Assembly (NCBI GenBank): GCA_030017685.1
Contig: JASEHH010000003.1
Location: forward strand, 25,319 to 89,318
DNA length: 64,000 nucleotides
Reading direction: 5' to 3'
Origin: Thermodesulfobacteriota bacterium
Lineage (GTDB): Bacteria; Desulfobacterota; BSN033; UBA1163
The number at the start of each line of letters is the position of its first letter. Position 1 is the stretch's first letter. Below the pieces are notes generated by a model. The model did no database searches and was not told where the DNA came from. It saw only the letters and a list, made by a program, of their open reading frames with translations. The position numbers were made by a program, and so were the translations under genes. Positions 3,545-55,490 of the stretch are shown piece by piece.

Positions 3545-4879
3545 ATGAACTTCTTCGATCTCTATCGACAAAAAACATCCCTTTCAGAAAAGCTTTTCAA
3601 AAGAGCCAAAGAGGTGATGCCAGGGGGTATCTCTCATAATGTCCATTACTTTCCTCCCTACCCCTTCTTCCTGAAGGAGGCAAAAGGTTCAAAAATTCGG
3701 GATGTGGACGGAAACGAATATATCGATCTCTGGATGGGCCACTACACCCATATCCTCGGCCATCATTCTGAAATCATCGTCGAAGCCATTGAACAGCAAT
3801 TAAAAGAGGGAATTCACTGGGGCATCCTCTTTGAAAAACAGGTCGAGTGGGCCGAACTCATCCGTGAATTGATCCCCTGTGCGGAAACGGTCCGGTTCTG
3901 CTGCTCCGGAACCGAGGCAACCATGTATGCGGTTCGCCTCGCACGGGCATTTACAAGGAAGAATACGATTTTAAAGATAGCCGGAGGCTGGCATGGTGCC
4001 AACTCAGACCTCTCTGTGGGAATCAAATTGCCCTATGAAAAAGAGGAGAGCCTCGGCCTCCTGCCTGAACTCCAGCATTACACAAAGACCATCTTTTTTA
4101 ATGATCTCCCAGGGACACTTGAAATGATCCATCAAAACAGGAATGATCTGGCAGGAGTCATTCTTGAACCTATCGTGGGTGAGGGTGGATTCATCCCCGC
4201 CACCGAAGAATATCTGAAAATGCTTCGTTCCGAGACGGAAAAATTGAGAGCTCTTCTCATCTTTGACGAGGTGATTTCTGGATTTCGGGTCGGTCTCGGA
4301 GGAGCTCAGGGACTTTTTAATATCCTCCCAGACCTTACTACCCTTGGGAAGATTATTGGCGGAGGAATGCCAGTTGGGGCGCTCGTGGGAAGAAAGGAGA
4401 TCATGGAAAAGACCTCACCTGAAAAGAAGGCAGACAAATGGGAGAAGATTTTGATTGGTGGCGGGACTTTTTCTTCCCATCCACTAACCGTTGCCGCTGG
4501 AATAACCATCCTTCGTTATTTAAGAGATTTTGAGGAGGAGATCTATCCGGTTTTAGAGGTTAAGGGAGAACGGGTGCGTAAGGGTGTTCAGGAAGCCCTT
4601 CAGCGCGAAGGAGTGGAGACCGTTGTCACAGGGACCGGCTCCCTCTTTCAGACTCACTTCCCTTTCCAGAAAGGAGTAACTCTGAACTCTCCCCATTCGA
4701 TCAATCAATTTACCGATACAGAGAAAAGAGAAGTTGAGTTTCGTATCCGGATGCTGAATCACGGAGTCCATATGATGCACGGCGGCGGAAGCCTGTCGAT
4801 GGCCCATTCTGATGAAGACATTGAAAGGATCATCCAGGCGACAAGAGAGGTAGCAAGGGAAATGGTAAATATAGTTTAG
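3545..4879 (+). CDS. hemL: glutamate-1-semialdehyde 2,1-aminomutase family aminotransferase (HemL-like, class III)
   Basis: 444 aa. The HemL-like blocks CSGTEATMYAVRLARAFT, IFDEVISGFRVGLGGAQ and LGKIIGGGMPVGA (the PLP-lysine region) are present. The N-terminal motif is divergent (GGISHNVHYF instead of GGVNSPVRAF). It is adjacent to the hemY/hemH/hemE genes. Confidence 0.65.
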   Translation: MNFFDLYRQKTSLSEKLFKRAKEVMPGGISHNVHYFPPYPFFLKEAKGSKIRDVDGNEYIDLWMGHYTHILGHHSEIIVEAIEQQLKEGIHWGILFEKQVEWAELIRELIPCAETVRFCCSGTEATMYAVRLARAFTRKNTILKIAGGWHGANSDLSVGIKLPYEKEESLGLLPELQHYTKTIFFNDLPGTLEMIHQNRNDLAGVILEPIVGEGGFIPATEEYLKMLRSETEKLRALLIFDEVISGFRVGLGGAQGLFNILPDLTTLGKIIGGGMPVGALVGRKEIMEKTSPEKKADKWEKILIGGGTFSSHPLTVAAGITILRYLRDFEEEIYPVLEVKGERVRKGVQEALQREGVETVVTGTGSLFQTHFPFQKGVTLNSPHSINQFTDTEKREVEFRIRMLNHGVHMMHGGGSLSMAHSDEDIERIIQATREVAREMVNIV

Positions 4880-5117
4880 AGAAGGTAAGGAATGGTTTAA
4901 AACCGTTCCCTTCAGGGGGATAGCCCTTCCTGCCCACCGACGGACAGGCACAAACGATGAAAATTGATTTATGTTACCTGGAAAAGGCATTCGAGTAAGG
5001 GTTACGAATCCAGTTTGGTAAGAGGGTTAAAAGATTACCACTAAAAATGCGATCGCAATTATAGTGGTAATCCTGACCTTCTAATCATTGTATTTTAATC
5101 CATCAAGGAGGTGTCTT

Positions 5118-5840
5118 ATGGGACGAAAGGGAGTAAAATTATTGGCTGAGGTATTATGTTTCACATTCGTTTTCGGAGGCTTAGCTATGGCAAAGGAGAC
5201 AGCAAAGATCGGCGTCATTGTGGTCGATGTCCAGGGTGACTTCACAAAATTTAAAAATGGTTCTCTAGCCGTGGAAGGGACGGATGAGGCCTATATCAAG
5301 GCTGTGGAGGAGAACACGAAGAAACTCAAGGTCGCAGGCTTCCCGATCTATGCCACTCAAGACTGGCACCCTAAAAACCATGCCTCTTTCTTCACCAATC
5401 ACCCCGGGAAAAAAGCCTTTGATGTGATCAAACTCCATGGAAAGGACCAGGTCCTCTGGCCTCCCCATTGCGTTCAGAAGACTCCCGGTGCGGAAATCTT
5501 ATTGGACAAGAAATTATTTAAGGCCGTTGTGAAGAAGGGAATGGATTCGCAATATGACAGCTATTCAGGCTTTCAGGACGATGGCGGAAAGAAAACAGAG
5601 ATGGATAAAATTTTAAAGAAGGAAAAAATTAAAAAGGTTGTAGTCTATGGCATTGCCACCGATTATTGTGTCAGGGCAACCGCCCTTGACGCAGTTGCCG
5701 CGGGATACAAGGTGTTCATGATCAAAAATCTGAGCAGAGGCGTTGCACCGGACACCTCTCAAAAAGCCATCGACGAGATGAAAGCCAAAGGAATCGTTGT
5801 GCTCGATGATCTGGACTTGGAAAAAGTCAAAGCCAACTAA
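5118..5840 (+). CDS. isochorismatase-family hydrolase (nicotinamidase/pyrazinamidase-like) with N-terminal signal peptide
   Basis: Translation contains VVDVQGDFT, QDWHP, the catalytic-Cys region YGIATDYCVRATALDA, and an N-terminal hydrophobic leader. An AAGGAGG RBS lies 7 nt before the ATG at 5118. The track start at 5088 lacks an RBS. Confidence 0.6.
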   Translation: MGRKGVKLLAEVLCFTFVFGGLAMAKETAKIGVIVVDVQGDFTKFKNGSLAVEGTDEAYIKAVEENTKKLKVAGFPIYATQDWHPKNHASFFTNHPGKKAFDVIKLHGKDQVLWPPHCVQKTPGAEILLDKKLFKAVVKKGMDSQYDSYSGFQDDGGKKTEMDKILKKEKIKKVVVYGIATDYCVRATALDAVAAGYKVFMIKNLSRGVAPDTSQKAIDEMKAKGIVVLDDLDLEKVKAN

Positions 5841-5965: not shown

Positions 5966-7468
5966 TTAGTAGTACCGTTTCTCTTCGATGTGGTCCTCGG
6001 CGAGGTCGATCCCCCATTCGGTGAGGATCTTTGAAACGGCCCGCTCACCACTTTCAATGCAATTCGGGACGCCAACCCCTCTGTAGCAGCCGCCGGCGAG
6101 GGCGAGGCCTGGGATCTGAGCGCTACGGTTCTCAATCATCGTGACCCGCTCAAGGTGCCCGAGCGAATACTGCGGCATTCCGAGGTACCACCGAAAGACG
6201 CGCGTAAATAAAGGCTTCGCAAACGGGTTGAGGCTCAGGATGTCACGGAACTCAGCGATTACTATCTGTACGAGCTCCTCGTCCGGGCGTTTCAAAATCT
6301 CCTGGTTGTGCGGACCGCCGACGAAACCACGAAGCAGCACCTTGCCTGCCGGTGCCCGGCCCGGCCACTTAATGGAAGAGTAAGTGGCCGCCATGAGCGC
6401 ATGGCCCTCTACGAGGGGACACAGAACCCCGAACGCATTCAGATCGAAGCCGACCTCGTTCTCGTTGAAGGCGATCGAGATCGTCGCCGAGGAAGAGGTC
6501 GGTATGTTGGCAAGTGCATCTGCGATGGCCTGGTCGTGTGGACGGATGAGGGGCTCGGCCGCCCATGACTCGGTGGCAATGATGACAGCGTCCCCATCGA
6601 TGGTGGAGCCGTCAGAGAGTTGAGCATTCCATCGACTATTGTCAGCACATTGGAGCGATGTGACGGCCACGCCCGTGCGCATTCTCTCACGACCTGCCGC
6701 ATCGGCCATACGATCCGTCAGTTGTTGCATACCATTGACAAACGAGGTGAAAAATGTGCGAGGTTTCTCGCCCGGTTTGGGAGGGTACTTTCGCCGCATC
6801 TCTTCAACCATGCGACGGGCCGCGATAAAGCCTTTCATGAGCGACCCATATTTCTGCTCCATTTCAAGGAGGCGGGGGAAAGTCGCGGCCAGTGACATCT
6901 GCGAGGGATCGGAGGCGTGAACGCCGCCGACGAGTGGTTCCGCCAGACGATCGAGGCACTCGCGGCCCATGCGGCGAACCACGAAGCTCTCGAGCGTCTC
7001 ATCGTTTAACTCACCAGGGACAACTTTCTTCGGCGGGATCAGAAGGTCCATGGCCATCCGTATTTTCCCCGGCCATGAGAAGAGGCCAGTCGTGGCGAAC
7101 GGTATGAACTTCGTGGGTGCAAACATCATGACGCCATCTGGCATCTGATGAAGTTTGCCACGTGACAGGATCCATGTCTTCTTCCGGGAGTCGTCAGTCG
7201 GTAACTCGTCGTCGAAAATCCCTGTGAGCTTAGCAATGCGGTGACAGGCCGGCTTTTCAGTCAGAAAACAGTCCGGACCACCGTCTACGATAAACCTACC
7301 CTTCTCCGAAGGATCGGGCACGATCTCCGTCTGGATCTTGCCGCCGAGGCGACGGTCCTTCTCGATCAGAACGAACTCGATTCCGTGGCCCTCGGATGCG
7401 GCCCTGGTCACTTTGTAGGCCGCGCCAAGCCCGGCAATGCCGCCGCCAACAATGATGATGCGTTTCAT
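5966..7468 (-). CDS. hemY: protoporphyrinogen/coproporphyrinogen III oxidase, HemY family (FAD-dependent)
   Basis: 500 aa with an N-terminal FAD-binding Rossmann motif (MKRIIIVGGGIAGLGAAYK) and HemY-family length. It lies immediately downstream of hemH and hemE on the same strand. The gene has markedly higher GC than its flanks. Confidence 0.75.
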   Translation of the reverse strand: MKRIIIVGGGIAGLGAAYKVTRAASEGHGIEFVLIEKDRRLGGKIQTEIVPDPSEKGRFIVDGGPDCFLTEKPACHRIAKLTGIFDDELPTDDSRKKTWILSRGKLHQMPDGVMMFAPTKFIPFATTGLFSWPGKIRMAMDLLIPPKKVVPGELNDETLESFVVRRMGRECLDRLAEPLVGGVHASDPSQMSLAATFPRLLEMEQKYGSLMKGFIAARRMVEEMRRKYPPKPGEKPRTFFTSFVNGMQQLTDRMADAAGRERMRTGVAVTSLQCADNSRWNAQLSDGSTIDGDAVIIATESWAAEPLIRPHDQAIADALANIPTSSSATISIAFNENEVGFDLNAFGVLCPLVEGHALMAATYSSIKWPGRAPAGKVLLRGFVGGPHNQEILKRPDEELVQIVIAEFRDILSLNPFAKPLFTRVFRWYLGMPQYSLGHLERVTMIENRSAQIPGLALAGGCYRGVGVPNCIESGERAVSKILTEWGIDLAEDHIEEKRYY

Positions 7469-7607
7469 GTAATCTCCAAAACTAAGGATTCTAGGGTTCG
7501 TGGGTTCAAAGTTTCAAGTGTAACATTAAAACTCAACAAAATTCTTTTTTCCTTCATCAAACTACTTGCCCTTTAGACCATAGAACGCTTTCCTAAAAAG
7601 AACTTCC

Positions 7608-8546
7608 CTAGGCCCCTTGAACCCTTGTATCCTTAGACCCTTTTATATGATCTTCAACGATACTCGCAAGCGCTTCTATAAATCTTTCAGAAAAGTTGAG
7701 CGATGGTGTCCGCTTCAATATCATCCCCAACGATTCAGCCTTTTCCTTATAAAGGATATCGATATCGTAGAGGACCTCAATATGATCCGATACAAAACCA
7801 ATGGGTACGATGAGAACCTCTCGAACCCCTATCTTGTTAATCTCCACCAGAATGCTTTCAACATCCGGAGCGATCCACTTCCCCGGGCCGCCCCCTTTGC
7901 TCTGAAAGGCCATATGCCAGGAAAGCGGCTCGATCCTTTTCACAACCTCATCTACACTCTCCTTCATATCGTGAACATAGGGATCGTTCCCAATGACTGA
8001 CTCCGGAAGGCTATGGGCAGTAAAAATAAGGTGGACCCTCCTACTTTCTTCCGGAGTAAATTGTTTCAGCCCCTCTACCACCCTCTCTGCCACCGCTTGT
8101 AAAAAGAGCGGATGGGAATGCCATCCCTCGATAAAAGTGATTTTTAATTTTTCTCCTGAGATTTTATTGGCTCGATTCAACTCCTCCTTATAAGCGCCTG
8201 TGCTGAATCGAGACCGGAAAGGGGCCATTGGAATAGCAACAACCTCTTTGACTCCATCTTGAAGGATCTCCTTCAATGTCTCTTCAACCAACGGCTGACT
8301 GTATCGCATCCCCACATAGGATTTGAACAAATAACCCCTGGAATTCAGTTTCTCTTCCAGGGCCCTGGCCTGCCTCTCCGTGATGGTGGGAAGAGGCGAA
8401 CAACCTCCAATTAAACGATAGCGTTCCTTAACCCTTTCAAGCAGTTCAGGGGAGGGTTTCCGCCCGAAGAGACAGGTCAGCAGAAATTCAACCTCCTCCA
8501 GTGAACGGGGCCCACCAAAAGCTAAGAGAAAAAGGGCTTTCATCAT
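7608..8546 (-). CDS. hemH: ferrochelatase (HemH family)
   Basis: 312 aa with a ferrochelatase-like N-terminus (ALFLLAFGGPRSLEEVEFL...RYRLIGGCSPL). It sits between hemE and hemY. Confidence 0.8.
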   Translation of the reverse strand: MMKALFLLAFGGPRSLEEVEFLLTCLFGRKPSPELLERVKERYRLIGGCSPLPTITERQARALEEKLNSRGYLFKSYVGMRYSQPLVEETLKEILQDGVKEVVAIPMAPFRSRFSTGAYKEELNRANKISGEKLKITFIEGWHSHPLFLQAVAERVVEGLKQFTPEESRRVHLIFTAHSLPESVIGNDPYVHDMKESVDEVVKRIEPLSWHMAFQSKGGGPGKWIAPDVESILVEINKIGVREVLIVPIGFVSDHIEVLYDIDILYKEKAESLGMILKRTPSLNFSERFIEALASIVEDHIKGSKDTRVQGA

Positions 8547-8687
8547 TATATTGAGAAAATAAAAGTATTGGGTTTGGGCTAAGGTTAGGGTAAGGATGCC
8601 AGTTTAGTCTATGGGTAAAGGCAAGGGTTTAAATCATCAGCCCTAACCCATTAACCTTACACCAGACGGGCTTCGTAACCTTAACCT

Positions 8688-9746
8688 TTACCTTTTCCCC
8701 TGTTTGACCTGTGAACTATACTCATGGACCATATCGACTAAGGCAGACACATGTTCAACAGGAGTATTGGGTAAAATGCCATGGCCCAGGTTGAAGATAT
8801 GGCCGGGCCGGCCTCCTGCTTGATCGAGGATGCGCTTAACTTCTTTCTTAATTAAATCGACAGGGCCAAATAGAACCACCGGGTCGAGATTCCCCTGGAT
8901 ACCAACATCATACCCGATGCGCGCCCAGGCCTCGCCCAGATCAACTCTCCAATCCACCCCGATGACATCCCCCCCCGCTTTTTTCATCAATGGTAATAAG
9001 GCCGAAGTAGACGTCCCAAAATGAATCACCGGCACGCTTCTGTCCAGATTGCCAAGGACTTTTTGGGTATAAGGAAAGACATACTCCTCATAATCCGTCG
9101 GGTTTAGACAACCCACCCAGGAGTCAAAAATCTGGAGAGCCTGCACGCCTGCCCGGACCTGGGCGTTGAGATATCGAATCAGCACTTCTGAAACCTTCTC
9201 CATCAGGAGATTCCATGCCGGGCGATTCTGATACATCAACCCTTTTGTGAGGATATAATTCCTGGAATGACCTCCCTCGATCATATAACTCGCAAGGGTG
9301 AAAGGGGCTCCTGAAAACCCGATGAGAGGAATTTTCCCTTCCAGCTCTCTCCGGACAATGCGAATTGACTCCATGAGAAAAGGAATCTCCTCTTCCGGTT
9401 CGATGATCTTCAACCGCTCCACATCCTTCAACTCCCGAACGGGACGATGAAAAACAGGGCCTTCTCCTTTCGCAAATTCAAATTTCACTCCCATCGGTTC
9501 CAGAGGAATAAGGATATCCGAAAAGATGATGGCTGCATCGAGTTTAAACTTGTCAATAGGTTGAAGCGTAACCTGCGCTGCCACTTCAGGATTCTTACAC
9601 ATCTCCAGAAATGAAAATCTCTTTCGGAGGGCCCGGTACTCCTTCATATACCGGCCTGCCTGGCGCATCAACCAGATGGGAGTATAGGGAGTGGGCTTTC
9701 TTCGACAAGCTCTAAGAAAAGGGAACTTCTCTATTGTCTTCCCCAT
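8688..9746 (-). CDS. hemE: uroporphyrinogen decarboxylase
   Basis: 352 aa carrying the HemE signature PIWLMRQAGRYMKEYR near the N-terminus. Confidence 0.9.
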   Translation of the reverse strand: MGKTIEKFPFLRACRRKPTPYTPIWLMRQAGRYMKEYRALRKRFSFLEMCKNPEVAAQVTLQPIDKFKLDAAIIFSDILIPLEPMGVKFEFAKGEGPVFHRPVRELKDVERLKIIEPEEEIPFLMESIRIVRRELEGKIPLIGFSGAPFTLASYMIEGGHSRNYILTKGLMYQNRPAWNLLMEKVSEVLIRYLNAQVRAGVQALQIFDSWVGCLNPTDYEEYVFPYTQKVLGNLDRSVPVIHFGTSTSALLPLMKKAGGDVIGVDWRVDLGEAWARIGYDVGIQGNLDPVVLFGPVDLIKKEVKRILDQAGGRPGHIFNLGHGILPNTPVEHVSALVDMVHEYSSQVKQGKR

Positions 9747-9881: not shown

Positions 9882-11378
9882 TTATGGTTTGCTACTCCAA
9901 TCCCTCAGCATTTGGAGTAGCAACCTCACCCCAACCCCTGTTCCCCCTTTGGGAATATAGGGTCTTTCTTTTTCAATATGAGCTGGACCTGCAATATCCA
10001 GATGGACCCAGGGTGTCTTTTCAACAAACTTACTCAAAAAAATCCCTCCAATGATCGTCCCTGCAGCCCGGGTCCCAACATTTCTGAAATCCGCAGTATC
10101 ACTCTTAAGATAATCAAAGTATTCATCCCAGAGGGGCAACCGCCAAACCTTTTCTCCGCTTCTGGAGGCTTCCTCGATCTTTTTTAAGAGCGTGTCATCA
10201 TTTCCCATAATGCCGATCACATAATCTCCCAGGGCGATCACGCAAGCTCCGGTTAGGGTTGCCAGGTCGATGATAGCTTTTGGTTTATAACGAAGGCTGT
10301 AGGTCAGGGCATCTGCAAGGATGAGCCTTCCCTCTGCATCGGTGCTGATTACCTCAACGGTCTGACCTGAAAGGGTCTTCAACACATCACCCGGCTTATA
10401 GGCCTTTCCGCTCGGAAGATTTTCAGTTGCCGGAATAATCCCCACCAAATGAAGAGGAATCTGGAGCTGGGAAGCTGCCTGCAGGGTGGTCAAAACTGCC
10501 GCCGCCCCTGACATGTCGTCTTTCATCCTCTCCATATTTTCTGAAGGCTTAATCGAGATTCCACCACTGTCGAATGTGATTCCTTTCCCCACCAAAGCGA
10601 TGGTATCCAGCTTCTTCCCTTTATTATATTCCAGAACGATGAATTTCCCGGGTTCCTGGCTCCCTCGGGCCACAGCCGCAAAAGCTCCCATGCCCATGGC
10701 CTCTGCTTCGCTCACCTCCAACACCTGAATCTCCATGGAGTGATCTTTGGCAATCTGTCTGGCTTTTTCAACCAGCAACATGGGAGTGACCTGATTACTG
10801 GGTCCGTTGACCAGATTTCTTGCTGTGCAGACCGCATCTGAGATGATCGTCCCTTTCCTTGACCCCTCCCCAATGGATTGGATCTCTTTATCGGTCTCTC
10901 CGAGAAGGATCACTTCCTCAATCGTTTTGATCTTTCCCCTTTCAAGTGTCTTAAATTCATTGAACTGGTAAGTTCCAAGCAGAAGTCCTGTGACAAAAGA
11001 TTCAGTGAGCTCCTCCTCGAATAGACCTTTGAATGGTTTTATCTGAAACGCAAATTGTTTGATCCCCGAATCCCTTATAAACTGCCCGGCCTTCGAAGCC
11101 GCTCCTCTCCATTTCTCCAGATCGAACTCCTCTTTTTTGCCGAGACCTGTCAGCAAAACCCTTCTCGCAGGAATCGCCCCCTGGGTATGAATAAGCCGGC
11201 ATTGGAACAACTCCCCCTTGAAATCACCCTGGCTGATGAGTGTGGAGAGGTACCCCTTCCATTCCAGATCAACATTTTTGATTGGCCCCTCCAGGGGTTC
11301 TGGCGATTCAAAAGAAAAAAGAAGGAGAAGTTCGGAAGGATATTTCTCTGCTTTCCCTTGCTCAACCCGAATTTGCAT
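9882..11378 (-). CDS. pepA: leucyl aminopeptidase (M17 family)
   Basis: 498 aa containing the M17 signature NTDAEGRL (VISTDAEGRLILADALTY). Confidence 0.85.
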   Translation of the reverse strand: MQIRVEQGKAEKYPSELLLLFSFESPEPLEGPIKNVDLEWKGYLSTLISQGDFKGELFQCRLIHTQGAIPARRVLLTGLGKKEEFDLEKWRGAASKAGQFIRDSGIKQFAFQIKPFKGLFEEELTESFVTGLLLGTYQFNEFKTLERGKIKTIEEVILLGETDKEIQSIGEGSRKGTIISDAVCTARNLVNGPSNQVTPMLLVEKARQIAKDHSMEIQVLEVSEAEAMGMGAFAAVARGSQEPGKFIVLEYNKGKKLDTIALVGKGITFDSGGISIKPSENMERMKDDMSGAAAVLTTLQAASQLQIPLHLVGIIPATENLPSGKAYKPGDVLKTLSGQTVEVISTDAEGRLILADALTYSLRYKPKAIIDLATLTGACVIALGDYVIGIMGNDDTLLKKIEEASRSGEKVWRLPLWDEYFDYLKSDTADFRNVGTRAAGTIIGGIFLSKFVEKTPWVHLDIAGPAHIEKERPYIPKGGTGVGVRLLLQMLRDWSSKP

Positions 11379-11410: not shown

Positions 11411-11951
11411 ATTTAAATTCGAAGCACTAAATCCGAAATCGCTTAAACTCTAAACACTAAACTCTAAACCCTAAACAAATCCAAAAGCTAAAACTCAAAA
11501 AGTTATTTCGATTTCTCAACAATTGAACCGAATATCTTCGTGAGCTCTGTTGCTTCCTTGATCAAGTTCTGTTTTTCCATCATTTGCTCTTCTTTTGGTT
11601 CGGTTAACTCAAGCCAGTACCCACTCTCTTTTGCCTCTTTTCTTGATATCTTTATTCTCATTACAAAATCCTTTCTACTTAATGCTTCTTCGCCCTCAAT
11701 ATAGTTGGCCCCCACTGAGCCAGAAGCCTTGATAAGCTGTCTTGCGTCTTCTATATTGCTTAAAGTCTTTGGTAAATTCTTCACGTAGTTTCTTACCATT
11801 TTGGCAAATCTAAGCGTCCTGTCCCTTAAATCATACGGTTTTGAGTTTTGTGTTTTGGATATTTGAGCTTGTTTAGAGTTTAGGATTTCGAGTTTAGGGT
11901 TTAACATCTTCGTTTCATCCCGTCTTGGCGTGATTTCAATATTCGGATTTT
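11411..11951. repeat. approximately 540-bp repeat unit, copy 1 (near-identical to 50230..50767), carrying a four-helix-bundle gene
   Basis: Direct nucleotide comparison of 11411-11951 with 50230-50767 shows near identity (a few substitutions, one N/S difference in the encoded protein). This includes about 90 bp 3' and about 45 bp 5' of the ORF. The ends are built from ctaaa(c)-type repeats that are approximately inverted relative to each other. Confidence 0.8.
11503..11907 (-). CDS. four-helix-bundle protein (TIGR02436-like, the 23S rRNA intervening-sequence protein family)
   Basis: 134 aa translating to MLNPKLEILNSKQAQISKTQNSKPYDLRDRTLRFAKMVRNYVKNLPKTLSNIEDARQLIKASGSVGANYIEGEEALSRKDFVMRIKISRKEAKESGYWLEL. 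This is the typical four-helix-bundle pattern. A second copy lies at 50320..50724. Confidence 0.75.
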   Translation of the reverse strand: MLNPKLEILNSKQAQISKTQNSKPYDLRDRTLRFAKMVRNYVKNLPKTLSNIEDARQLIKASGSVGANYIEGEEALSRKDFVMRIKISRKEAKESGYWLELTEPKEEQMMEKQNLIKEATELTKIFGSIVEKSK

Positions 11952-23720: not shown

Positions 23721-23789
23721 AAAAGCAGAAAACTCATCCCTGTCAATAAAAATTTAATCAACAAATAAAGAGAGAGGAGGAATGTCCTT

Positions 23790-24287: not shown

Positions 24288-24305
24288 CCGGAAAAGGAGG
24301 TCTTA

Positions 24306-24821: not shown

Positions 24822-24833
24822 GGGGGTAAAGAT

Positions 24834-25409: not shown

Positions 25410-25419
25410 GGAAGAGAGG

Positions 25420-27136: not shown

Positions 27137-27198
27137 CCCCCCTACCCCTCCCTCCCCCGCAAGTGGGGAGGGAAAAGGGGAGGGGGAAGGAGAGAGCT

Positions 27199-29193: not shown

Positions 29194-30428
29194 GAAAATG
29201 GATGAAAATAGCAATTCGCAATATTCTAAGAAATAAGCGCCGGTCCTTTGTCACTTTGCTCGCGATAGGTGTGGGCTTTTCAGCGATCAGCCTCTTTCGC
29301 GGTTATGTCAGTAATACCTATTCCGGATTAAGGGAATCAGCTATTCGAGGCGAGGGCCTGGGTCATCTAACTATCTACAAGGCTGGCTGGCTCGAGAAAG
29401 GGAAACTTGATCCTGAGCGATATATGTTTTCGAAAGCGGAAGTCGACAAAATAACGAAACTGGTCACGGAAGAAAATGAGGTCATTTTGGCTACCCCTCA
29501 GATTCAGGTTGCCGGTATTGTCTCGAATGGAACCACCTCTACCATTTTCATAGCCCAGGGAGTCGTTCCCAGGGATGATAAGACTATTAAAGGAGCCTGG
29601 GCTGCTTTTAGGCCCATTAATGGAGAGGGATTACATGAGCAGAAGACTTATGGAGTGGAGATTGCCCAGGATTTAGCCAAGTATCTCAACCTCAAACCTG
29701 GCAAGGACGGGGTTGTGATGGTCACTACCCTTAGCGGGCAGATGAATGCCATGGACATACAAGTTGCGGGTGTATATGATTCTGGGTCGGATGCCACTAA
29801 TGACAAATACATGCGTTTCACTTTTGACTTCGCACAGTCCCTTTTTGACACGAAAATGGCTGAAAGAATCGTTTTACTGCTGGAAGACTGGGGAAAGACC
29901 GAGAAGATGCGTGCGCTCCTTCTGACCAAACTAACCAAGGCAGGCATTGCCTGTGAGATAAAGACCTGGAACGAACTATCCTTATTCTATTCAAAGGTTA
30001 GAGGGATGTTTGATATGATCTTCCTATTCCTGTTCTCCATTATCTTAGTCATCGTTGTTATGAGCACTGTCAACACGATGGGTATGGCAGTTTTAGAGAG
30101 AACCAGAGAGATTGGAACCCTGAGGGCCTTGGGCTTAAAGAGAAGGGGTACATCGCTGCTCTTCGCGATGGAAGGCGGCCTGTTGGGCCTTTTCGGCAGT
30201 TTCATAGGAGTAGTATTGCATGTGAGCGTGTGGGCCATTATTCGAGCTTTCTCCCCGACCTACACACCTCCGGGTGCTTCTACACCTGTGCCATTAATTG
30301 TCAACCTTGTACCTCAAACCATGTTCGTGTTGATGCTCTTTCTGATTTTCCTTTCTTTGTTAGCTGCTATCATCCCGGCGAGGCGTGCGGCCAAACAAAA
30401 TGTTGTGGACGCCCTGGGACACGTGTAA
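29190..30428 (+). CDS. ABC transporter permease, FtsX/MacB-like (N-terminal TM, large periplasmic domain, C-terminal 3-TM bundle)
   Basis: 412 aa with FtsX-like topology. Its start overlaps the ATPase stop (ATGA). Confidence 0.75.
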   Translation: MRKWMKIAIRNILRNKRRSFVTLLAIGVGFSAISLFRGYVSNTYSGLRESAIRGEGLGHLTIYKAGWLEKGKLDPERYMFSKAEVDKITKLVTEENEVILATPQIQVAGIVSNGTTSTIFIAQGVVPRDDKTIKGAWAAFRPINGEGLHEQKTYGVEIAQDLAKYLNLKPGKDGVVMVTTLSGQMNAMDIQVAGVYDSGSDATNDKYMRFTFDFAQSLFDTKMAERIVLLLEDWGKTEKMRALLLTKLTKAGIACEIKTWNELSLFYSKVRGMFDMIFLFLFSIILVIVVMSTVNTMGMAVLERTREIGTLRALGLKRRGTSLLFAMEGGLLGLFGSFIGVVLHVSVWAIIRAFSPTYTPPGASTPVPLIVNLVPQTMFVLMLFLIFLSLLAAIIPARRAAKQNVVDALGHV

Positions 30429-30447
30429 ATATATTAGAAGGAGGAAG

Positions 30448-31215
30448 ATGATGAATTGCCAACATAAAAAACGAGATTTGATTCTTTTAGTTTTTACACT
30501 TGTTTCTTGTCTGGGCTTTTTCCTCCCTTCGCTTCATGCCGCCATGGACCCCAAGGAGATCCTCATAAAAGCGGATGGAGCTCGGGGTAACGTGGGAGGA
30601 GTAGAGTGGGAGATCGACATTGAATCCGTTGAAGGAGGGCGTCAACAACAAAGAACAATCAGGGTAACTGCTCGTGATTTCAACTCACTGGCAGACTTTC
30701 TTGCTCCAGCCAATGTGAAAGGCCAAAAGTTATTGATGCTAGACCGCAATATGTGGTTTGTGAAACCAGGTCTTTCTAAAGCAGTCCCTATCTCTCCCCG
30801 GCAAAAACTAATGGGCGGTGCTGCCAATGGCGACATAGCATCGACCAACTATGCCGGCGACTATCAAGCCATTCAAAGTTTGGAGGACACGGCGAATGGA
30901 GAGCCCTGCTATCTCTTTGATTTAAGCGCAGTGGATAAGAAGGCTACTTATGACCGGATTAAATACTGGGTATCCAAAGAGCGGCTGGTGGGCCTCAAGG
31001 CTGAATTTTACACGGTTTCAGGAAAAATGTTTAAGACCGCCACATTCGAATATGAAAACAGCATCACTGTCGATAGTAAGCCGCAACCATTCATTTCCAA
31101 AATGGTTATTACGAGCGCCGTGCTGAAAGAGGATGTCACAACCATGTACTTTCGCAAGGTATTGATCAAGAAGGTTCCTGATTCCGTTTTCAACCTAAAC
31201 CTGCTGTTAAAATAG
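30448..31215 (+). CDS. LolA-like outer-membrane lipoprotein-sorting family protein (secreted)
   Basis: Signal peptide (MMNCQHKKRDLILLVFTLVSCLGFFLPSLHA). The size and position after the ABC/FtsX pair fit the LolA-like family. AGGAGG precedes the ATG at 30448. Confidence 0.45.
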   Translation: MMNCQHKKRDLILLVFTLVSCLGFFLPSLHAAMDPKEILIKADGARGNVGGVEWEIDIESVEGGRQQQRTIRVTARDFNSLADFLAPANVKGQKLLMLDRNMWFVKPGLSKAVPISPRQKLMGGAANGDIASTNYAGDYQAIQSLEDTANGEPCYLFDLSAVDKKATYDRIKYWVSKERLVGLKAEFYTVSGKMFKTATFEYENSITVDSKPQPFISKMVITSAVLKEDVTTMYFRKVLIKKVPDSVFNLNLLLK

Positions 31216-40279: not shown

Positions 40280-40295
40280 CCAGTCTTCTCTCGCT

Positions 40296-44659: not shown

Positions 44660-45556
44660 TTATCTACGGCGGGATCGTTTCTGTCTCTCCCATCGCCGAT
44701 GGATCCAGAGCCATTGTTCAGGGTACTGGCGGATGATCGATTCGAGAACCCGGTTAAAGAGCTGAGTATTGGCTTCCACATCCTGCCTGAAAACGCCGGT
44801 ATGGATGATTTCGAGAGGGTCCCTGATGATGAGACGGTGTTTCCAGAATCCCTCCCGGACCATGAAAACGGGCAGGACAGGAGCGCGGCTTTTGATGGCC
44901 ATGACTGCCAGGCCGGAAGTGGTCGGCACCTTTCTTCCGAAAAAGTCGGCCCAGACCCCTTTGCTTCGCTTTCCCCTCTGATCAAACAGAATTGCAACAA
45001 TCTGGTTCCGGGAAAGGGCCTGCAAAACTTTCTTTGTCGCATTCACAGGAGGAATGATCTCCAGACCTATTTTATTTCTGGTTCCGATAATCCATCGATC
45101 CAACCGTGGATTCTTTTTGATGGGTTTGGCAATGGCCAGGATCGGCCTGTTGATGACCTTCGACATCAGAGCCATCAGTTCCCAGTTCCCGAAATGCCCG
45201 AGGAGAAGAAGCGCTCCTCTGTTCTCATCGAGAACCTTCAATGCCTTATCGAGCCCTTCCACGGCTACTTTTCTATCATAGGTTTCCATATCCATCTTTG
45301 GAATCTGGAAAAATTCGATGGCCATCATTCCAAGATTCTGAAAGTTCTTTCTGGCTATGGAATGCATCTCCTCTTCCGACTTCTCGTGACCGAAGGCAAG
45401 ATGAAGATTTTGAATGGCGATTTTCCGATGTTTTACGTCGAGGAGGTGCATCACATTTCCCAACTGCCTTCCGATCCAGAGGGCAAACCCCTCCGGCAGA
45501 AGATTGATGAAGAAGCCGAATAATCTGAGCGTCAGGTAGATGAGAAGAGAAGTCAT
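44660..45556 (-). CDS. lysophospholipid/lipid A biosynthesis acyltransferase (LpxL/HtrB family)
   Basis: 298 aa with an N-terminal TM anchor and LpxL-family length and composition (HLGNWE...). Sits among LPS-core genes. Confidence 0.65.
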   Translation of the reverse strand: MTSLLIYLTLRLFGFFINLLPEGFALWIGRQLGNVMHLLDVKHRKIAIQNLHLAFGHEKSEEEMHSIARKNFQNLGMMAIEFFQIPKMDMETYDRKVAVEGLDKALKVLDENRGALLLLGHFGNWELMALMSKVINRPILAIAKPIKKNPRLDRWIIGTRNKIGLEIIPPVNATKKVLQALSRNQIVAILFDQRGKRSKGVWADFFGRKVPTTSGLAVMAIKSRAPVLPVFMVREGFWKHRLIIRDPLEIIHTGVFRQDVEANTQLFNRVLESIIRQYPEQWLWIHRRWERQKRSRRR

Positions 45557-46155: not shown

Positions 46156-46740
46156 CTACTTTCTACTTTCCCTGTTAAGAATCCACTGGACCGCCTCAAA
46201 AAGGTCCTGAGCTACATAATCCGGCTTTGACTTCCATTGTTCTCCGAAATATTCCCGCTCCCCTTTGCCATATCCTGTGAGGACCAGAATGGTCTTTGCC
46301 CCAATCCGATGGCCAAATTCGACATCCGCCCCCCGGTCCCCGATCATATAACTTTTAGAACAGTCGATCTCCAGATCCTTCACGGCTTCTTCGATCAGAC
46401 CCGTCTCAGGTTTTCGACACCGGCATTTCTGACGGTATGGAGGCTCTCCTGCATCGGGATGATGGGGGCAGTAATAGATTCCATCGAGATGTGCTCCTGC
46501 ATCCCTTAAATGGTCTTCCATCTTCCGGTGGACCAGGTGGATTAAGGACTCCGGGAAATATCCCCTTGCCACACCCGCCTGATTGGTGACAACAACGACC
46601 TTTATCCCATTCTGGTTCAATAACCGGATCGCCTCACCGACTCGGGGAAGTAGTCTAAACCGTTCGAGATGATTCACATACCCCATCTCTTCATTAATCG
46701 TTCCATCCCGGTCCAGAAAAACCGCCCTGTGCCTCCCCAT
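46156..46740 (-). CDS. gmhB: D-glycero-beta-D-manno-heptose 1,7-bisphosphate 7-phosphatase (HAD-IIIA)
   Basis: Translation shows AVFLDRDGTIN, VVVTNQAGVARGYF and the CRCRKPETG Zn-binding motif. Start taken at MGRHRAVFLDRDG. Confidence 0.75.
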   Translation of the reverse strand: MGRHRAVFLDRDGTINEEMGYVNHLERFRLLPRVGEAIRLLNQNGIKVVVVTNQAGVARGYFPESLIHLVHRKMEDHLRDAGAHLDGIYYCPHHPDAGEPPYRQKCRCRKPETGLIEEAVKDLEIDCSKSYMIGDRGADVEFGHRIGAKTILVLTGYGKGEREYFGEQWKSKPDYVAQDLFEAVQWILNRESRK

Positions 46741-46841
46741 CCCCCTATCTCCCTCTGACCGTGTCCCATAAGTCATCTGCTGGACACAGGGAGACGGGGT
46801 ATAATTGGTTCAATTGAGGCTCCAACATAACATATTTGTGT

Positions 46842-46997: not shown

Positions 46998-47828
46998 TCA
47001 GTATCTCCCTATCTCCCCATCACCCCATCTCCCTAACTCAAACCGATCCGGAGGCGTGAACCTCAGGAAGGACCGGTGGACCATCCAGTCTCCCACATTG
47101 AAATAGAGACATCTCTTTCCGTCTATCCGCTCCTCCATCTCCTCCGGAAAGTGGGAGTGGCCAAGAATCACCCTATCAAAACCCTCTAAAAATTTTTGAT
47201 GGGCAAAGCTTTTGAATTCCGGAGGCGGGCCGGAGGAAAGGACGGCATGATTTTTATGATAACTCCTTTGACTGAGCCACTTCGCAACATGACGGGAGAA
47301 TCTGGGACCAACTCTCTCGATAAGACCGTAGGTCCACCGGTTCTTGATCATTCTCCGGAAGGTCCGGTATCTCCATAGTTTCGGATTGGATAAGTCTCCA
47401 TGAGAGATAAAAACCCTTCTTCCTCCCAGCCGCTCCTCATTCCCTTCAGGATAAACCTCCACCTCCATCCCGAATCTTTCTGAGAAGAAGGAGTGGAGGA
47501 AGAAATCGTGATTTCCCTCAAAATATTTGATTCGAATCCCCCGGCGAAATAAGTTTTGAAGACCTTCCAAAATGGGAAGGTAATCTGCAAAAGGAAAGGG
47601 CTTCCCGCGGGCAGGATTATCTTTAAAACCGAAGAGAAATTCGAACAGGTCACCCAGGATCACCAGATGGTCCATCCGCTCCTTCTCCGAATTTAAGAAT
47701 CTGAGAAAGACCTCCATCGCCTCGGGTTCTCTTCCACTAAAATGGGCATCGGAGACGAAGATCCAGTCCTTTTCAGTTTGAGTCAATATAAATCCTTCCC
47801 GTAATTCTTCAGTCTCAACTAAAACCAA
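46998..47828 (-). CDS. metallophosphoesterase, UDP-2,3-diacylglucosamine hydrolase (LpxH)-like
   Basis: Translation shows calcineurin-like motifs (DAHF, GDLFEF, GNHD, GHSH). Lies in a lipid A/LPS-core neighbourhood. Start uncertain. Confidence 0.55.
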   Translation of the reverse strand: MVLVETEELREGFILTQTEKDWIFVSDAHFSGREPEAMEVFLRFLNSEKERMDHLVILGDLFEFLFGFKDNPARGKPFPFADYLPILEGLQNLFRRGIRIKYFEGNHDFFLHSFFSERFGMEVEVYPEGNEERLGGRRVFISHGDLSNPKLWRYRTFRRMIKNRWTYGLIERVGPRFSRHVAKWLSQRSYHKNHAVLSSGPPPEFKSFAHQKFLEGFDRVILGHSHFPEEMEERIDGKRCLYFNVGDWMVHRSFLRFTPPDRFELGRWGDGEIGRY

Positions 47829-53336: not shown

Positions 53337-55490
53337 TTACAAACTCATATAAAAAGGTTTCTTCCCAAACGAACCCAGACCCAGCAGATTGAGATAGACC
53401 TGAAACTTTAATTCCTTCTTCTGGACCCCATCAGGAGATCGCCCCTTATCCTCCACCGTCAGTCCCAATGTCCAGCACTGCGCCTGGTATTCTGCCCCAT
53501 AGATATTCTCCACCTTCCAGTGATCTTTTAAATTATAGCGCATCGAGCCATAGAGATAGAGAGGAGGGATCGTCTTGATCCGGGTGCCCGCATTGACCTC
53601 TTTAATGTTGCGCTGGGCATATCGGTATTGAACCTGAAGCGCATCATTCCGGTTATCCTTGATGTTGATGGAGGCATTCCCAACTTCCAGATTTCCATGA
53701 TAGGGGCTGAACTCTCCATCTAATTTCGCAGAAAGGTGAGGGCTGAAATTCCACCAGAGTTCTCCCTGGATATTGGAAAAAAACCTCCCATTGCCCTTTG
53801 AATCCCGCGTGAAGGGGTCTCCAAGACTATAGGACTGGAAGATTTTCAGCTTTGCGTATTCCGAGGGTCCGGAACTCATCCCTTCTTTCTCGGGTTTTCC
53901 TATAAGGCGTTGTGTGAAGCCATAGGTGATCTGATTCGAATACGGGATTCGATCCAAATCGTCGAAGGTGGGAAGCTCTTTCTGGTTGACCGGGGGACTG
54001 TAATGGTAGCCGATCATGGGCTCGATGGTATGCATCCATTTCGCCACCTTATAAAGTCTGGAAATTCCCGGAACCGCTCCCGCCTCGTAGACCCGGTAAA
54101 ATTCTGTGGAGACCTCCGTGTTTGCCACAACGGTCTCACGCGACTCCCATCCTTTATATTGCCGGGCCGGATCATCAAAAGACTTATACAGGGTCTCTCT
54201 TGGCCCCACACTCGATTCCACCTTCAAGACATTGAAGAGCCTCATCGGATAGGAGAGTCTTGGAAAGAGGTCTCCCCGGTGCGCCTCCACGCCTTTCTCC
54301 CGCCAGAAATTAGTGTAAGAGGCGCTTGCATCGAAGAAGAGCGGCGTATTGAAAAGGGATTGGGGGTGGGCAGAAAAACTTATTTGCGGTAGCCTCTGAA
54401 CCGTCCCGTCATTACTCTCTCTGGTCAGATCCTGAAAAACGGATGCCTCTGCCAGGAAACTGAATTGGTCCCAGTTTTTGCCTCCGAAGAGGGTGGACCT
54501 TAACTGTCCCCTGCTTCTTGAGTCGATCTTCGCCTCTCCCGGAAGGTCTTCATCAAAATCGCTGTGGTAGCGGATGTCGCTCACGCGATTGATATTGCCC
54601 TTTAAATAGAAGTCGTATGGAAATTTCTGTTGATGCTGGCCGAAGAAGGCATAGCGATTCTTATTAAAAACTTGATCATCGATGAAATGGAAGCTGACCT
54701 GTCCCCTGGTCTCCGGAGTGAAGGCGTAGCGGTATTCCAAACCTTCTTTAAAACCCCTCTTCCCCAAATAATCCAGATAAAGAGTGGCATCCATGTCTTT
54801 GGTAATGGCCCAGAAGAAAGCGTTCTTCACCTCGGGACCGTACTTTTTCGAATACCCCACACGGGGAAGGAGAAAGCCCGTCTGTCTCTCCCTTCTCACG
54901 GGAAAGAGTCCCCAGGGAAGATAGAGAGATGGAATGCCTTCGAGATAAAAGGTTGGACCCTTGGCAATCCCATATCCTTCGACCGTGACCTCCAATTCTT
55001 TGACCGTAAATTTCCACGGAGGCCGCGCCGCATCGCAGGTGGTGAAAGAACCTTCTCGAATTCGATACCGGTTCTCTCCTAATTTCTCCCCCTCCTTGCT
55101 CGTGATATGAAAATTCTGATCCTTGAGAAAGAGTCTGGCCTGATAGATCTTACCCAGCCGGGTATCGAGGTTGATCTCCAACCGCTCGCACTCGAGAACA
55201 TCTTCTCCTTCCCTTAATACAACATTTCCCCAGGCCACCAGATCTTTCGTCGTCATATTCAGTTGAGCGTGATCTCCTTTGAGAAAGAGATCCCCTCTTT
55301 TCACTTCCACCCTTCCATGGGCCTCATAGACCTGCCTGTCCCGTTCATAAGAAAGCTCATCCGCCTCAATCTCCACGGGCCCTTCCCCCTTCTCCACCTT
55401 CACATCGGCGATCTTTCCATCGGAGACAGGGGGATGAAAGAGGGTGAGGAGGATGGATAAGGAGCTCAAAACGAACCAGCGATATCTCAT
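53337..55490 (-). CDS. lptD: LPS-assembly protein LptD (OstA family)
   Basis: 717 aa with a signal peptide, an N-terminal OstA-like region and a large C-terminal beta-barrel. Confidence 0.8.
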   Translation of the reverse strand: MRYRWFVLSSLSILLTLFHPPVSDGKIADVKVEKGEGPVEIEADELSYERDRQVYEAHGRVEVKRGDLFLKGDHAQLNMTTKDLVAWGNVVLREGEDVLECERLEINLDTRLGKIYQARLFLKDQNFHITSKEGEKLGENRYRIREGSFTTCDAARPPWKFTVKELEVTVEGYGIAKGPTFYLEGIPSLYLPWGLFPVRRERQTGFLLPRVGYSKKYGPEVKNAFFWAITKDMDATLYLDYLGKRGFKEGLEYRYAFTPETRGQVSFHFIDDQVFNKNRYAFFGQHQQKFPYDFYLKGNINRVSDIRYHSDFDEDLPGEAKIDSRSRGQLRSTLFGGKNWDQFSFLAEASVFQDLTRESNDGTVQRLPQISFSAHPQSLFNTPLFFDASASYTNFWREKGVEAHRGDLFPRLSYPMRLFNVLKVESSVGPRETLYKSFDDPARQYKGWESRETVVANTEVSTEFYRVYEAGAVPGISRLYKVAKWMHTIEPMIGYHYSPPVNQKELPTFDDLDRIPYSNQITYGFTQRLIGKPEKEGMSSGPSEYAKLKIFQSYSLGDPFTRDSKGNGRFFSNIQGELWWNFSPHLSAKLDGEFSPYHGNLEVGNASINIKDNRNDALQVQYRYAQRNIKEVNAGTRIKTIPPLYLYGSMRYNLKDHWKVENIYGAEYQAQCWTLGLTVEDKGRSPDGVQKKELKFQVYLNLLGLGSFGKKPFYMSL

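Follow-up and report, generated by a model that had tools for sequence, protein, structure and literature searches.

A hemE-hemH-hemY cluster in the genome of a Thermodesulfobacteriota bacterium raises two questions: which branch of haem biosynthesis these genes serve in an organism with an outer membrane, and whether they share a common history. We analyzed the surrounding 64-kb stretch of DNA (the window) together with related loci. The cluster probably represents the coproporphyrin-dependent (CPD) haem branch in an LPS-bearing, anaerobe-like uncultured Syntrophaceae/Thermodesulfobacteriota clade, with a hemY gene that was imported once.

Organization and conservation of the cluster

The three genes are co-oriented and are transcribed from the minus strand in the order hemE, hemH, hemY. 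The gene hemE (9746..8688, 352 aa) codes for a uroporphyrinogen decarboxylase (TIGR01464, 438.7 bits with a cut-off of 303; PF01208, 451 bits), hemH (8546..7608, 312 aa) for a ferrochelatase of probable CpfC type (TIGR00109, 232.3 bits with a cut-off of 124.6; PF00762, 284.5 bits) and hemY (7468..5966, 500 aa) for an FAD oxidase of probable CgoX type (TIGR00562, 270.4 bits with a cut-off of 97.85; PF01593 and PF13450). The ORF coordinates and the family profile scores bear out the gene order given in a preliminary description of this DNA. Upstream of hemE, separated by 135 bp, lies pepA (9882..11378, minus strand), which encodes a leucyl aminopeptidase (NF002083, 498.8 bits) and is a conserved neighbour of the cluster across the clade. 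The two spacers inside the cluster measure 141 and 139 bp. No terminator-like site was found in them, so that co-transcription of the three genes is plausible, though with spacers of about 140 bp the cluster is only a putative operon. A promoter-like site in the hemH-hemY spacer, directly upstream of hemY (7488..7517, minus strand; TTGAAA-18-TAGAAT, 10/12), may be the own promoter of the putatively imported hemY, but since the five promoter-like sites observed in the region equal the 5.0 expected from shuffles, we treat it only as a lead.

The order pepA-hemE-hemH-hemY is kept at related loci (L001-L028, L042, L045 and L049). It occurs in more than 25 related MAGs or metagenome contigs labelled Syntrophaceae, Thermodesulfobacteriota or 'delta proteobacterium', and contigs of 2.2 Mb (CAVXWK010000002.1) and 0.88 Mb are among the carriers within the clade. 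As the order hemE-hemH-hemY recurs in every clade relative examined and additionally in loci of Actinomycetota, Chloroflexota, Aquicultor, Elusimicrobia and Poribacteria, the arrangement is not a matter of chance.

A HemL-family gene had been placed just upstream of the cluster. The gene in question (3545..4879) is actually on the plus strand, past the 3' end of hemY, and the two genes converge. Its product is a HemL-like class-III aminotransferase that scores below both HemL cut-offs (TIGR00713, 360.8 versus 527.3; NF000818, 370.9 versus 398), and the ORF was rejected as a validated HemL on the basis of these scores. In about 15 clade members this HemL-like gene adjoins pncA.

The outer-membrane and LPS functions ascribed to the window were recovered, two of them with scores under the profile cut-off. 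LptD, the outer-membrane LPS assembly protein (55490..53337, minus strand; PF04453, 169.5 bits with a cut-off of 22.4), and GmhB (46776..46156, minus strand; NF006506, 178.7 bits with a cut-off of 178) exceed their thresholds; the LpxL-like acyltransferase (45556..44660, minus strand; NF006270, 190.7 bits) and the LpxH-like protein (47828..46998, minus strand; NF003743, 105.5 bits) remain under theirs of 248 and 134. A LolA-like protein is encoded at 30385..31215. By its predicted gene content the host is confirmed as a diderm. It also looks anaerobic, and the window contains an oxidative-stress set of the anaerobe type with rubrerythrin, a PerR-like regulator and peroxiredoxins.

HemH resembles coproporphyrin ferrochelatases

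The best relatives of HemH with a solved structure are the CpfC proteins of B. subtilis, B. anthracis and Listeria (185-193 bits), compared with 156 bits for human PpfC. HemH shows the class II chelatase fold with the conserved catalytic pair H183 and E264 (B. subtilis numbering, Bs), contains only two Cys and has no Fe-S extension. It is also devoid of the N-terminal lid or membrane-loop insertion of PpfC: the segment Bs33-45 comprises 13 aa in HemH and in the CpfC of both Bacillus species, versus 26 aa in human PpfC and 29 aa in the E. coli enzyme. In a neighbour-joining (NJ) tree HemH joins these two Bacillus CpfC, apart from the PpfC of human and E. coli; E. coli HemH, the sole bacterial PpfC anchor, was entered with a provisional sequence.

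The ligands of propionates 2 and 4, two groups absent from protoporphyrin, are Lm Y124 (propionate 2) and Lm T14, Y46 and S53 (propionate 4) (PMC9794026), and the propionate-2 ligand Lm Y124 corresponds to Bs Y125 (PMC7340540, PMC9794026). Three of the four are present in HemH as Y119 (Lm Y124), Y43 (Y46) and S50 (S53), and T14 is exchanged for Gly; in B. subtilis numbering, Y125, R46, Y47 and S54 are retained. At the position of Lm Y124 human PpfC contains Ser and E. coli PpfC, in the provisional sequence, Val. The proximal Tyr Bs Y13 and the propionate-7 Arg Bs R30 were not found in HemH, which has Phe at Y13 and is missing R30/R31. Since almost every hemEHY-linked HemH from Actinomycetota, Chloroflexota and other loci likewise lacks both features, they appear to be Firmicute-specific. 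Tree and diagnostic residues agree on the choice between CpfC and PpfC that had been left to phylogenetic placement, and support a HemH of the CpfC type with a predicted specificity for coproporphyrin.

HemY resembles coproporphyrinogen oxidases of the CgoX type

The N-terminus of HemY carries the dinucleotide-binding motif (IIVGGGIAGLGAAY), and profile matches assign the protein to the FAD amine-oxidase fold of the HemY/PPOX family. Compared with solved structures, HemY scores higher against B. subtilis CgoX (3i6d, 270 bits) than against M. xanthus PgoX (2ivd, 201 bits). The residues that distinguish CgoX from PgoX were taken from PMC10740692 and judged on alignments. A Phe at Bs227 and an Arg at Bs364 are CgoX-specific, and Arg95 of PgoX is replaced by a small residue (PMC10740692). 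HemY is CgoX-like at Bs D65, K71, F227 (F240 in HemY) and R364, which are all identical, and at R95 and I345 of the M. xanthus enzyme (Mx), which are both Thr. It is PgoX-like only at Mx F329 and L332: instead of small residues we found Phe and Leu, two of the three residues described as strictly conserved in PgoX, and with both present the active site appears intermediate. For the CgoX branch of diderms and Chloroflexota a bulky residue is accepted at the F329 position, not explicitly at L332 (PMC10740692).

HemY groups with the CgoX of B. subtilis and Exiguobacterium, leaving M. xanthus and tobacco PgoX outside, in 182 of 200 bootstraps (91%) of a tree that is NJ, not ML, and contains only two PgoX and two CgoX as structure-backed anchors. 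This placement, which had been proposed as a check beforehand, agrees with the diagnostic residues and supports a HemY of the CgoX type; its substrate would be coproporphyrinogen III. B. subtilis CgoX also oxidises protoporphyrinogen. CgoX-type hemY genes were additionally detected in MAGs of Planctomycetes, Elusimicrobia, Poribacteria and Pseudomonadota. With a median dN of 0.085, versus 0.21 for hemH, hemY is under the strongest constraint of all genes in the cluster.

hemY has a different origin than hemE and hemH

The base composition of hemY (GC 0.582, GC3 0.687) differs from that of hemH, hemE and pepA (GC 0.48-0.49, GC3 0.51-0.54), and both hemE (GC 0.49, GC3 0.54) and hemH (GC 0.48) are compositionally native. 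The borders of this GC island coincide with the borders of the hemY ORF, and the island is also present in about 20 clade genomes. At the Actinomycetota loci (GC 0.62-0.69) the composition of hemY equals that of its neighbours.

Identity to Coriobacteriia-type loci amounts to 59-73% for HemY, 28-36% for HemH and 49-58% for HemE. In NJ analyses the HemY proteins of the clade were monophyletic and nested inside the Coriobacteriia-type clade in 200 of 200 replicates; the HemH proteins of the clade grouped with Coriobacteriia-type HemH in none of 200. The histories of HemY and HemH are incongruent. Within the diversity of Actinomycetota HemY the Syntrophaceae-type proteins form one clade, placed after a tandem duplication in Actinomycetota genomes.

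Judged by composition and phylogeny, hemY alone of the cluster is a likely xenolog from high-GC anaerobic Actinomycetota, a direction of transfer that we infer. It would have been gained once, by the ancestor of the clade, from Coriobacteriia-type organisms known as MAGs, and would now occupy the hemY slot next to the native hemE and hemH. Such a swap within a conserved cluster would be a clean case of a xenolog displacing a gene of core cofactor biosynthesis, and the actinobacterial donor shares anoxic habitats with the clade. Absent from the preliminary description, the horizontal acquisition of hemY tells more than any other feature of the locus.

Predicted pathway and alternative explanations

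With a HemY of the CgoX type and a HemH of the CpfC type the cluster most likely runs the coproporphyrin branch up to coproheme and would supply its first three steps. HemE would decarboxylate uroporphyrinogen III to coproporphyrinogen III, the FAD oxidase HemY would convert this to coproporphyrin III, and HemH, as a soluble ferrochelatase without a cluster, would insert Fe2+ to yield coproheme. The conversion of coproheme to haem would be left to an enzyme that is not encoded nearby, either ChdC/HemQ or an O2-independent AhbD-like radical SAM enzyme. ChdC was not found in the 64-kb window using Pfam on ORFs of at least 150 aa or phmmer --max with LmChdC and GsChdC on six-frame ORFs of at least 70 aa, nor was it found in the regions that extend 10 kb to either side of hemY at 64 related loci. 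AhbD, HemN and HemF are not encoded in the window either, and the clade loci showed no AhbD-like or HemN-like gene. As observed at the locus, the pathway is thus incomplete.

The strongest alternative, which we consider possible but clearly less probable, accepts the steps to coproheme and assigns the last one to an AhbD-type or other radical-SAM decarboxylase from the siroheme pathway that is widespread among Thermodesulfobacteriota, or regards coproheme as the end product; in that case the earlier prediction of a ChdC gene would fail. AhbD is a documented O2-independent alternative found in CPD organisms without other Ahb enzymes, especially in anaerobes, and coproheme is bound by the bacterioferritin of D. 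vulgaris (PMC13564367). The oxidative-stress genes of the anaerobe type in the window, the linkage of ChdC to hemEHY in 0 of 64 loci and the HemN-family radical SAM (NF006385, 498 bits) that at least 12 loci of donor-type Actinomycetota retain at a distance of 4-6 kb from hemY point in the same direction. Against it stands the failure to detect an AhbD-like or HemN-like gene in the window or at the clade loci; the sole radical SAM encoded in the window is HpnR/BchE-like and of the B12-binding type. The anaerobic look of the host weighs against a CgoX, classically an O2-using enzyme, although CgoX of S. aureus is required anaerobically too (PMC6620371). A chimeric, largely O2-independent haem route, composed of native UroD and CpfC, a captured actinomycetal CgoX and an AhbD-like finish in place of ChdC, seems unlikely; if it did exist, it would constitute a CPD/siroheme hybrid in an abundant uncultured diderm clade, in which CgoX-type oxidases use a non-O2 acceptor in strict anaerobes.

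An improbable explanation is the classical protoporphyrin-dependent pathway, with HemY as PgoX, HemH as PpfC and protoporphyrinogen IX delivered by HemN/CgdH or HemF encoded elsewhere, as in the many deltaproteobacteria that possess hemY. In a 2014 survey of delta-proteobacterial genomes 18 of 35 carried HemY and all 35 HemN/Z (PMC4231631), HemY keeps the PgoX hallmarks F329 and L332, and ChdC is missing within ±10 kb of hemY at the 64 loci. The 'protoporphyrinogen oxidase' label of HemY in the source databases also fits, but this label predates or ignores the split between CgoX and PgoX, a misannotation noted in PMC10740692. The exchange of PgoX R95 for Thr, the CgoX-specific F227 and R364, and the position of HemY within an Actinomycetota clade and with CgoX rather than M. 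xanthus PgoX (182/200) contradict this pathway, as do the missing PpfC insertion of HemH and its Tyr for propionate 2, which protoporphyrin lacks. That faulty assembly or binning produced the GC island as a chimera with an actinobacterial fragment, or that the transfer ran in reverse from Syntrophaceae to Actinomycetota, is very improbable and already contradicted: the window and all its relatives are MAG or metagenome sequences, but the hemH-hemY and hemY-pncA (or small ORF) junctions were found again in more than 25 assemblies made independently in different studies, the long-read contigs (0.88 and 2.2 Mb) among them, and hemY is foreign in composition only in Syntrophaceae-type genomes and native in Actinomycetota, in whose diversity the Syntrophaceae HemY is nested as one clade after the tandem duplication.

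Implications for the clade

Taken together, the predicted proteins point to the coproporphyrin branch, and not the classical pathway, in this clade, which is very common in metagenomes of anoxic soils, peat, groundwater and the deep subsurface. HemY homologues fall into more than 2,500 protein clusters, and since HemY is labelled 'protoporphyrinogen oxidase', pathway-prediction tools would rebuild the classical pathway for the clade. The combination of a diderm cell plan with CPD genes had been called unusual. This was overstated: either ChdC or CgoX has been described for Acidobacteria, Planctomycetota, Deinococcota and Nitrospirota (PMC10991733, PMC5095920, PMC10740692), and CgoX-type hemY genes also occur in the other MAGs named above. 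As CPD genes are already reported in Acidobacteria, Planctomycetota and Deinococcota, the present case adds to a known kind; the known coproporphyrin pathway is extended to a new lineage and no new pathway is revealed. In the literature searched we found no report of CPD in Thermodesulfobacteriota, a lineage of which would join the short list of diderms with the coproporphyrin branch. This would weaken the equation of CPD with monoderms, which underlies the proposal of CPD enzymes as Gram-positive-specific drug targets, and raises the question how the O2-type chemistry of CgoX and the H2O2-type chemistry of ChdC work in strict anaerobes.

Comparison with known systems

Gene set and order are identical to those of hemEHY in B. 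subtilis (UroD, CpfC, CgoX), and the CpfC of this organism aligns end-to-end with the window HemH (193 bits), both being free of the PpfC insertion. In contrast to B. subtilis, the window host is an anaerobe-like diderm with LPS genes, the spacers measure about 140 bp, HemH has Phe for Tyr13 and Gly for Thr15 and is missing Arg30/31, Mx F329 and L332 are matched by Phe and Leu in HemY, hemY is probably of other origin than hemE and hemH, and hemQ/chdC was not found in the window. The hemE-hemH-hemY(-hemY) clusters of Coriobacteriia/Actinomycetota (L029-L044, L052 and L062), which come from uncultured high-GC MAGs, have the same order and, beyond the clade, contain the HemY nearest to that of the window (59-73%), with a residue signature identical to that of the window HemY. 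In many of these loci hemY is present as two tandem paralogs and a HemN-family radical SAM (NF006385) is linked to the cluster, whereas the window has neither, and their genomes (62-69% GC) are monoderm by label, unlike the diderm organism of the window.

In the CgoX branch of Nitrospirota, Chloroflexota and Thermomicrobiota, as in the window HemY, a bulky residue occupies the place of Mx F329 (PMC10740692). Acidobacteria, Planctomycetota and Deinococcota are outer-membrane lineages with CPD genes, and the window HemY is likewise a probable CgoX in a diderm. The window differs from these earlier cases by its phylum label, Thermodesulfobacteriota, and by a hemY that would have come from Actinomycetota; they were defined by ChdC, whereas the present case is proposed from the types of HemY and HemH. 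M. xanthus PgoX (2IVD), the characterised 'deltaproteobacterial' HemY, belongs to the same fold family as the window HemY (201 bits), and F329 and L332 are present in both. The window HemY differs from it by Thr for R95, Asp for N63, Phe for Leu at Bs227 and Arg for Ser at Bs364, and M. xanthus PgoX branches outside the group formed by the window HemY and the Bacillus-type CgoX (182/200).

Organization and conservation of the hemE-hemH-hemY cluster

The preliminary description had proposed co-oriented hemE, hemH and hemY genes. Three such ORFs are present in this order on the minus strand, all above the curated equivalog cut-offs and with concordant Pfam assignments: hemE (9746..8688, 352 aa; TIGR01464, 438.7 bits vs a cut-off of 303), hemH (8546..7608, 312 aa; TIGR00109, 232.3 vs 124.6) and hemY (7468..5966, 500 aa; TIGR00562, 270.4 vs 97.9). 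The gene pepA (11378..9882, minus strand) precedes hemE with a 135-bp spacer, and spacers of 141 bp and 139 bp separate hemE from hemH and hemH from hemY. Terminator-like sites in the cluster region were found exclusively inside genes, with a count not above the shuffle expectation. A promoter-like site (10/12 match) is located immediately 5' of hemY, but the number of such sites equals chance. Co-transcription of hemE, hemH and hemY is therefore considered possible.

The HemL-family gene, previously placed just upstream, is in fact located on the plus strand past the 3' end of hemY, in convergent orientation, and the encoded HemL-like aminotransferase (3545-4879) is under both HemL cut-offs. 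Its partner is a PncA nicotinamidase gene (5088-5840, plus strand) whose product has a signal-peptide-like N-terminus; the gap between hemY and pncA is 125 bp. This pair, convergent on hemY, is kept in about 15 genomes of the clade, i.e. the uncultured Syntrophaceae-, Thermodesulfobacteriota- or 'delta proteobacterium'-labelled MAGs that share pepA-hemE-hemH-hemY with the window. In several relatives, hemY and pncA are separated by an ORF whose product of 182-187 aa has a signal peptide and gives no Pfam match (L001:11658-12215, L006:11704-12252, L010:11586-12149 and L018:11579-12139; L numbers denote the 64 hemY loci compared); it is missing from the window. Between pepA and a PD-(D/E)XK/Cas4-like nuclease (11961-13166) the window encodes a four-helix-bundle protein (11503-11907, minus strand; TIGR02436), whose counterpart in L001 belongs to the PF05635 '23S rRNA intervening sequence protein' family. 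At 26639-27987 (plus strand), an ORF resembling GemA of phage Mu extends into the beginning of a bifunctional-nuclease and PDZ ORF; GemA also flanks the region in the relatives L002 and L003, beside a Y1 transposase.

The pepA-hemE-hemH-hemY block was found on every related contig examined, including contigs of 260 kb, 0.88 Mb and 2.2 Mb, and is usually followed by the convergent pncA and HemL-like genes. The protein collection contained more than 2,500 homologs of the window HemY. The best 120 of these are 84-91% identical and, where a source label is given, are Syntrophaceae, Thermodesulfobacteriota or 'Deltaproteobacteria bacterium' MAG proteins. A scan of species representatives recovered no cultured Syntrophus or Smithella genome.

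HemH and HemY are probably of the coproporphyrin type

To classify HemH we used the propionate ligands of Listeria coproporphyrin ferrochelatase (CpfC; PMC7340540, PMC9794026). Of these, the window protein retains the Tyr that binds propionate 2 (Listeria Y124) and, for propionate 4, Tyr46 and Ser53; protoporphyrin has neither of the two propionates. In human protoporphyrin ferrochelatase (PpfC), verified against 2QD3, the Y124 position is occupied by Ser. The window HemH further retains Arg45 and the catalytic His and Glu, but it departs from Listeria CpfC by the exchange of Thr14 for Gly and of the proximal Tyr for Phe, and Arg29 is missing. The N-terminal loop comprises 13 residues as in CpfC, whereas PpfC has 26-29, and the protein contains two cysteines without an Fe-S extension. 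For E. coli PpfC we take the residue at the Y124 position to be Val. In the phylogeny, HemH clustered with Bacillus CpfC, away from the PpfC anchors.

The residues discriminating coproporphyrin-type (CgoX) from protoporphyrin-type (PgoX) HemY were taken from PMC10740692 and examined in HMMER alignments against solved structures and in a MAFFT alignment of 62 sequences. The window HemY has the CgoX-like residues Asp, Lys, Phe and Arg at B. subtilis positions D65, K71, F227 and R364, Thr in place of the PgoX Arg95, and Thr at M. xanthus position I345. Phe at M. xanthus F329 and Leu at L332 are PgoX-like; bulky residues at the F329 position also occur in the CgoX branch of Chloroflexota, Acidobacteria and Nitrospirota (PMC10740692). 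Among the solved structures, B. subtilis CgoX scored best (270 bits); M. xanthus PgoX reached 201 bits. Neighbor-joining bootstrap analysis placed the window HemY on the CgoX side with the two solved CgoX proteins, and M. xanthus and tobacco PgoX outside, in 182/200 replicates. As this tree contains just four structure-backed anchors, we regard HemY as a likely rather than a proven CgoX. Taken together, the residue, loop and tree results indicate that both pathway-specific enzymes are of the coproporphyrin type, with HemY graded as likely. The earlier interpretation of a coproporphyrin branch is partly supported.

hemY was probably acquired from Actinomycetota

Judged from its sequence, hemY is a xenolog. 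Its GC content is 58.2% (GC3 68.7%), that of hemH, hemE and pepA 48-49% (GC3 51-54%), and the GC step falls on the borders of the hemY ORF. About 20 clade genomes show the same island (GC of 0.50-0.62 in hemY and 0.44-0.52 in its neighbours), which is almost ameliorated in a few of them. An assembly artefact is ruled out, since the arrangement recurs in more than 25 independent assemblies. Outside the clade, the next-closest HemY proteins (59-73% identity) are encoded by Coriobacteriia-, Actinomycetota- or 'Eubacteriales'-labelled loci with 62-69% GC, in which the GC of hemY agrees with that of its neighbours; HemE of these loci is 49-58% and HemH only 28-36% identical to the window proteins. 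Clade HemY was monophyletic and nested within Coriobacteriia-type sequences, each in 200/200 replicates (neighbor-joining bootstrap), and joined one of two Coriobacteriia-type tandem paralogs in 133/200. Clade HemH grouped with Coriobacteriia-type HemH in 0/200 replicates. The simplest reading is a one-time transfer in which hemY, without the other genes, passed from an anaerobic actinobacterium of high GC to the ancestor of the clade and took the hemY position of a pre-existing cluster.

The tandem paralogs follow hemE-hemH in six Coriobacteriia/Actinomycetota-type loci (L031, L035, L036, L037, L043 and L044; for example L037:8434-9957 and L037:9779-11494). They share 57-60% and 59-70% identity with HemY of the window. 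At M. xanthus positions F329 and I345, copy 1 carries His and Ser, whereas copy 2 agrees with the window protein in carrying Phe and Thr.

Within the cluster, constraint is strongest on hemY (median dN of 0.085 vs 0.21 for hemH), and the gene is therefore functional. Dating of the transfer by dS was abandoned because the synonymous sites of the neighbours are saturated (pS ~0.72-0.75) and the lower pS of hemY (~0.62) is confounded by its own GC3 bias. Comparison of PepA, HemH and the HemL-like protein identifies L011 and L013 as the two nearest genomes to the window (pS 0.19-0.41), but their hemY differs from that of the window by a pS of 0.51-0.62, the same divergence as in distant clade members. 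Alleles of hemY may thus have been exchanged inside the clade after the original acquisition.

The step from coproheme to haem

The preliminary description predicted a ChdC gene in another part of the genome. Pfam searches of nearly all window ORFs of at least 150 aa gave no match to ChdC. Using Listeria (6FXJ-verified) and Geobacillus ChdC as queries, phmmer --max against six-frame ORFs of at least 70 aa detected no ChdC-like ORF in the window or within ±10 kb of hemY in the 64 loci (best E = 0.6). ORFs of the Chlor_dismutase family or resembling HemN, HemF or AhbD were likewise absent from the window. The sole radical SAM protein, a B12-binding HpnR/BchE-like protein (38873-40279, minus strand), was rejected as a haem enzyme as it is far under both cut-offs (HpnR 254, BchE 174 bits); a 221-aa ORF without Pfam or NCBIfam match adjoins it (38873-40961 for both, minus strand).

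Many sulfate reducers have AhbD as a native part of their siroheme pathway. It is also a documented O2-independent substitute in organisms with the coproporphyrin-dependent (CPD) branch (PMC13564367). For these two reasons a hybrid route, finished by AhbD instead of ChdC, is a live alternative.

At least 12 Coriobacteriia-type loci contain a HemN-family radical SAM gene 4-6 kb downstream of hemY (e.g. L037:15032-16387, minus strand), assigned to NF006385 'coproporphyrinogen III oxidase family protein' with 498 bits vs a cut-off of 355. This protein is a candidate for an O2-independent haem step in donor-type genomes; the Syntrophaceae-type clade loci contained no homolog.

Diderm and anaerobe context

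The diderm context described before was confirmed by LptD (169.5 bits on PF04453) and by a LolA-like protein; the score of GmhB just reaches its cut-off, and those of the LpxL-like and LpxH-like ORFs fall short. Consecutive plus-strand genes at 23301-26028 for a PerR-like regulator (134 bits, below cut-off), rubrerythrin and three AhpC/TSA-family peroxiredoxins constitute the oxidative-stress kit of an anaerobe. Genes of the Fur and AhpC families and for rubrerythrin are located just 3-5 kb away from pepA-hemEHY in the relatives L002-L004. The proximity of such genes could be related to H2O2 made by CgoX.

Comparison with known systems

CPD genes in diderms are previously on record: ChdC occurs in most Planctomycetota and Acidobacteria and also in Deinococcota (PMC10991733, PMC5095920), and a CgoX branch contains Nitrospirota, Chloroflexota and Acidobacteriota (PMC10740692). 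In Planctomycetes-, Wallbacteria- and Pseudomonadota-labelled MAGs (L057, L059, L061 and L063) we found a CgoX-signature hemY straight after hemE with no hemH between, by sequence the same enzyme type in a different cluster layout in other diderms. HemY is common in delta-proteobacteria (18/35 genomes; PMC4231631), in which it is taken as PgoX. The literature searched contained no report tying Desulfobacterota or Syntrophales to the CPD pathway. The gene order of the window cluster is identical to that of the B. subtilis hemEHY operon; new are the assignment of a CPD-type enzyme pair to a Thermodesulfobacteriota-labelled clade and the proposed actinobacterial origin of its hemY.
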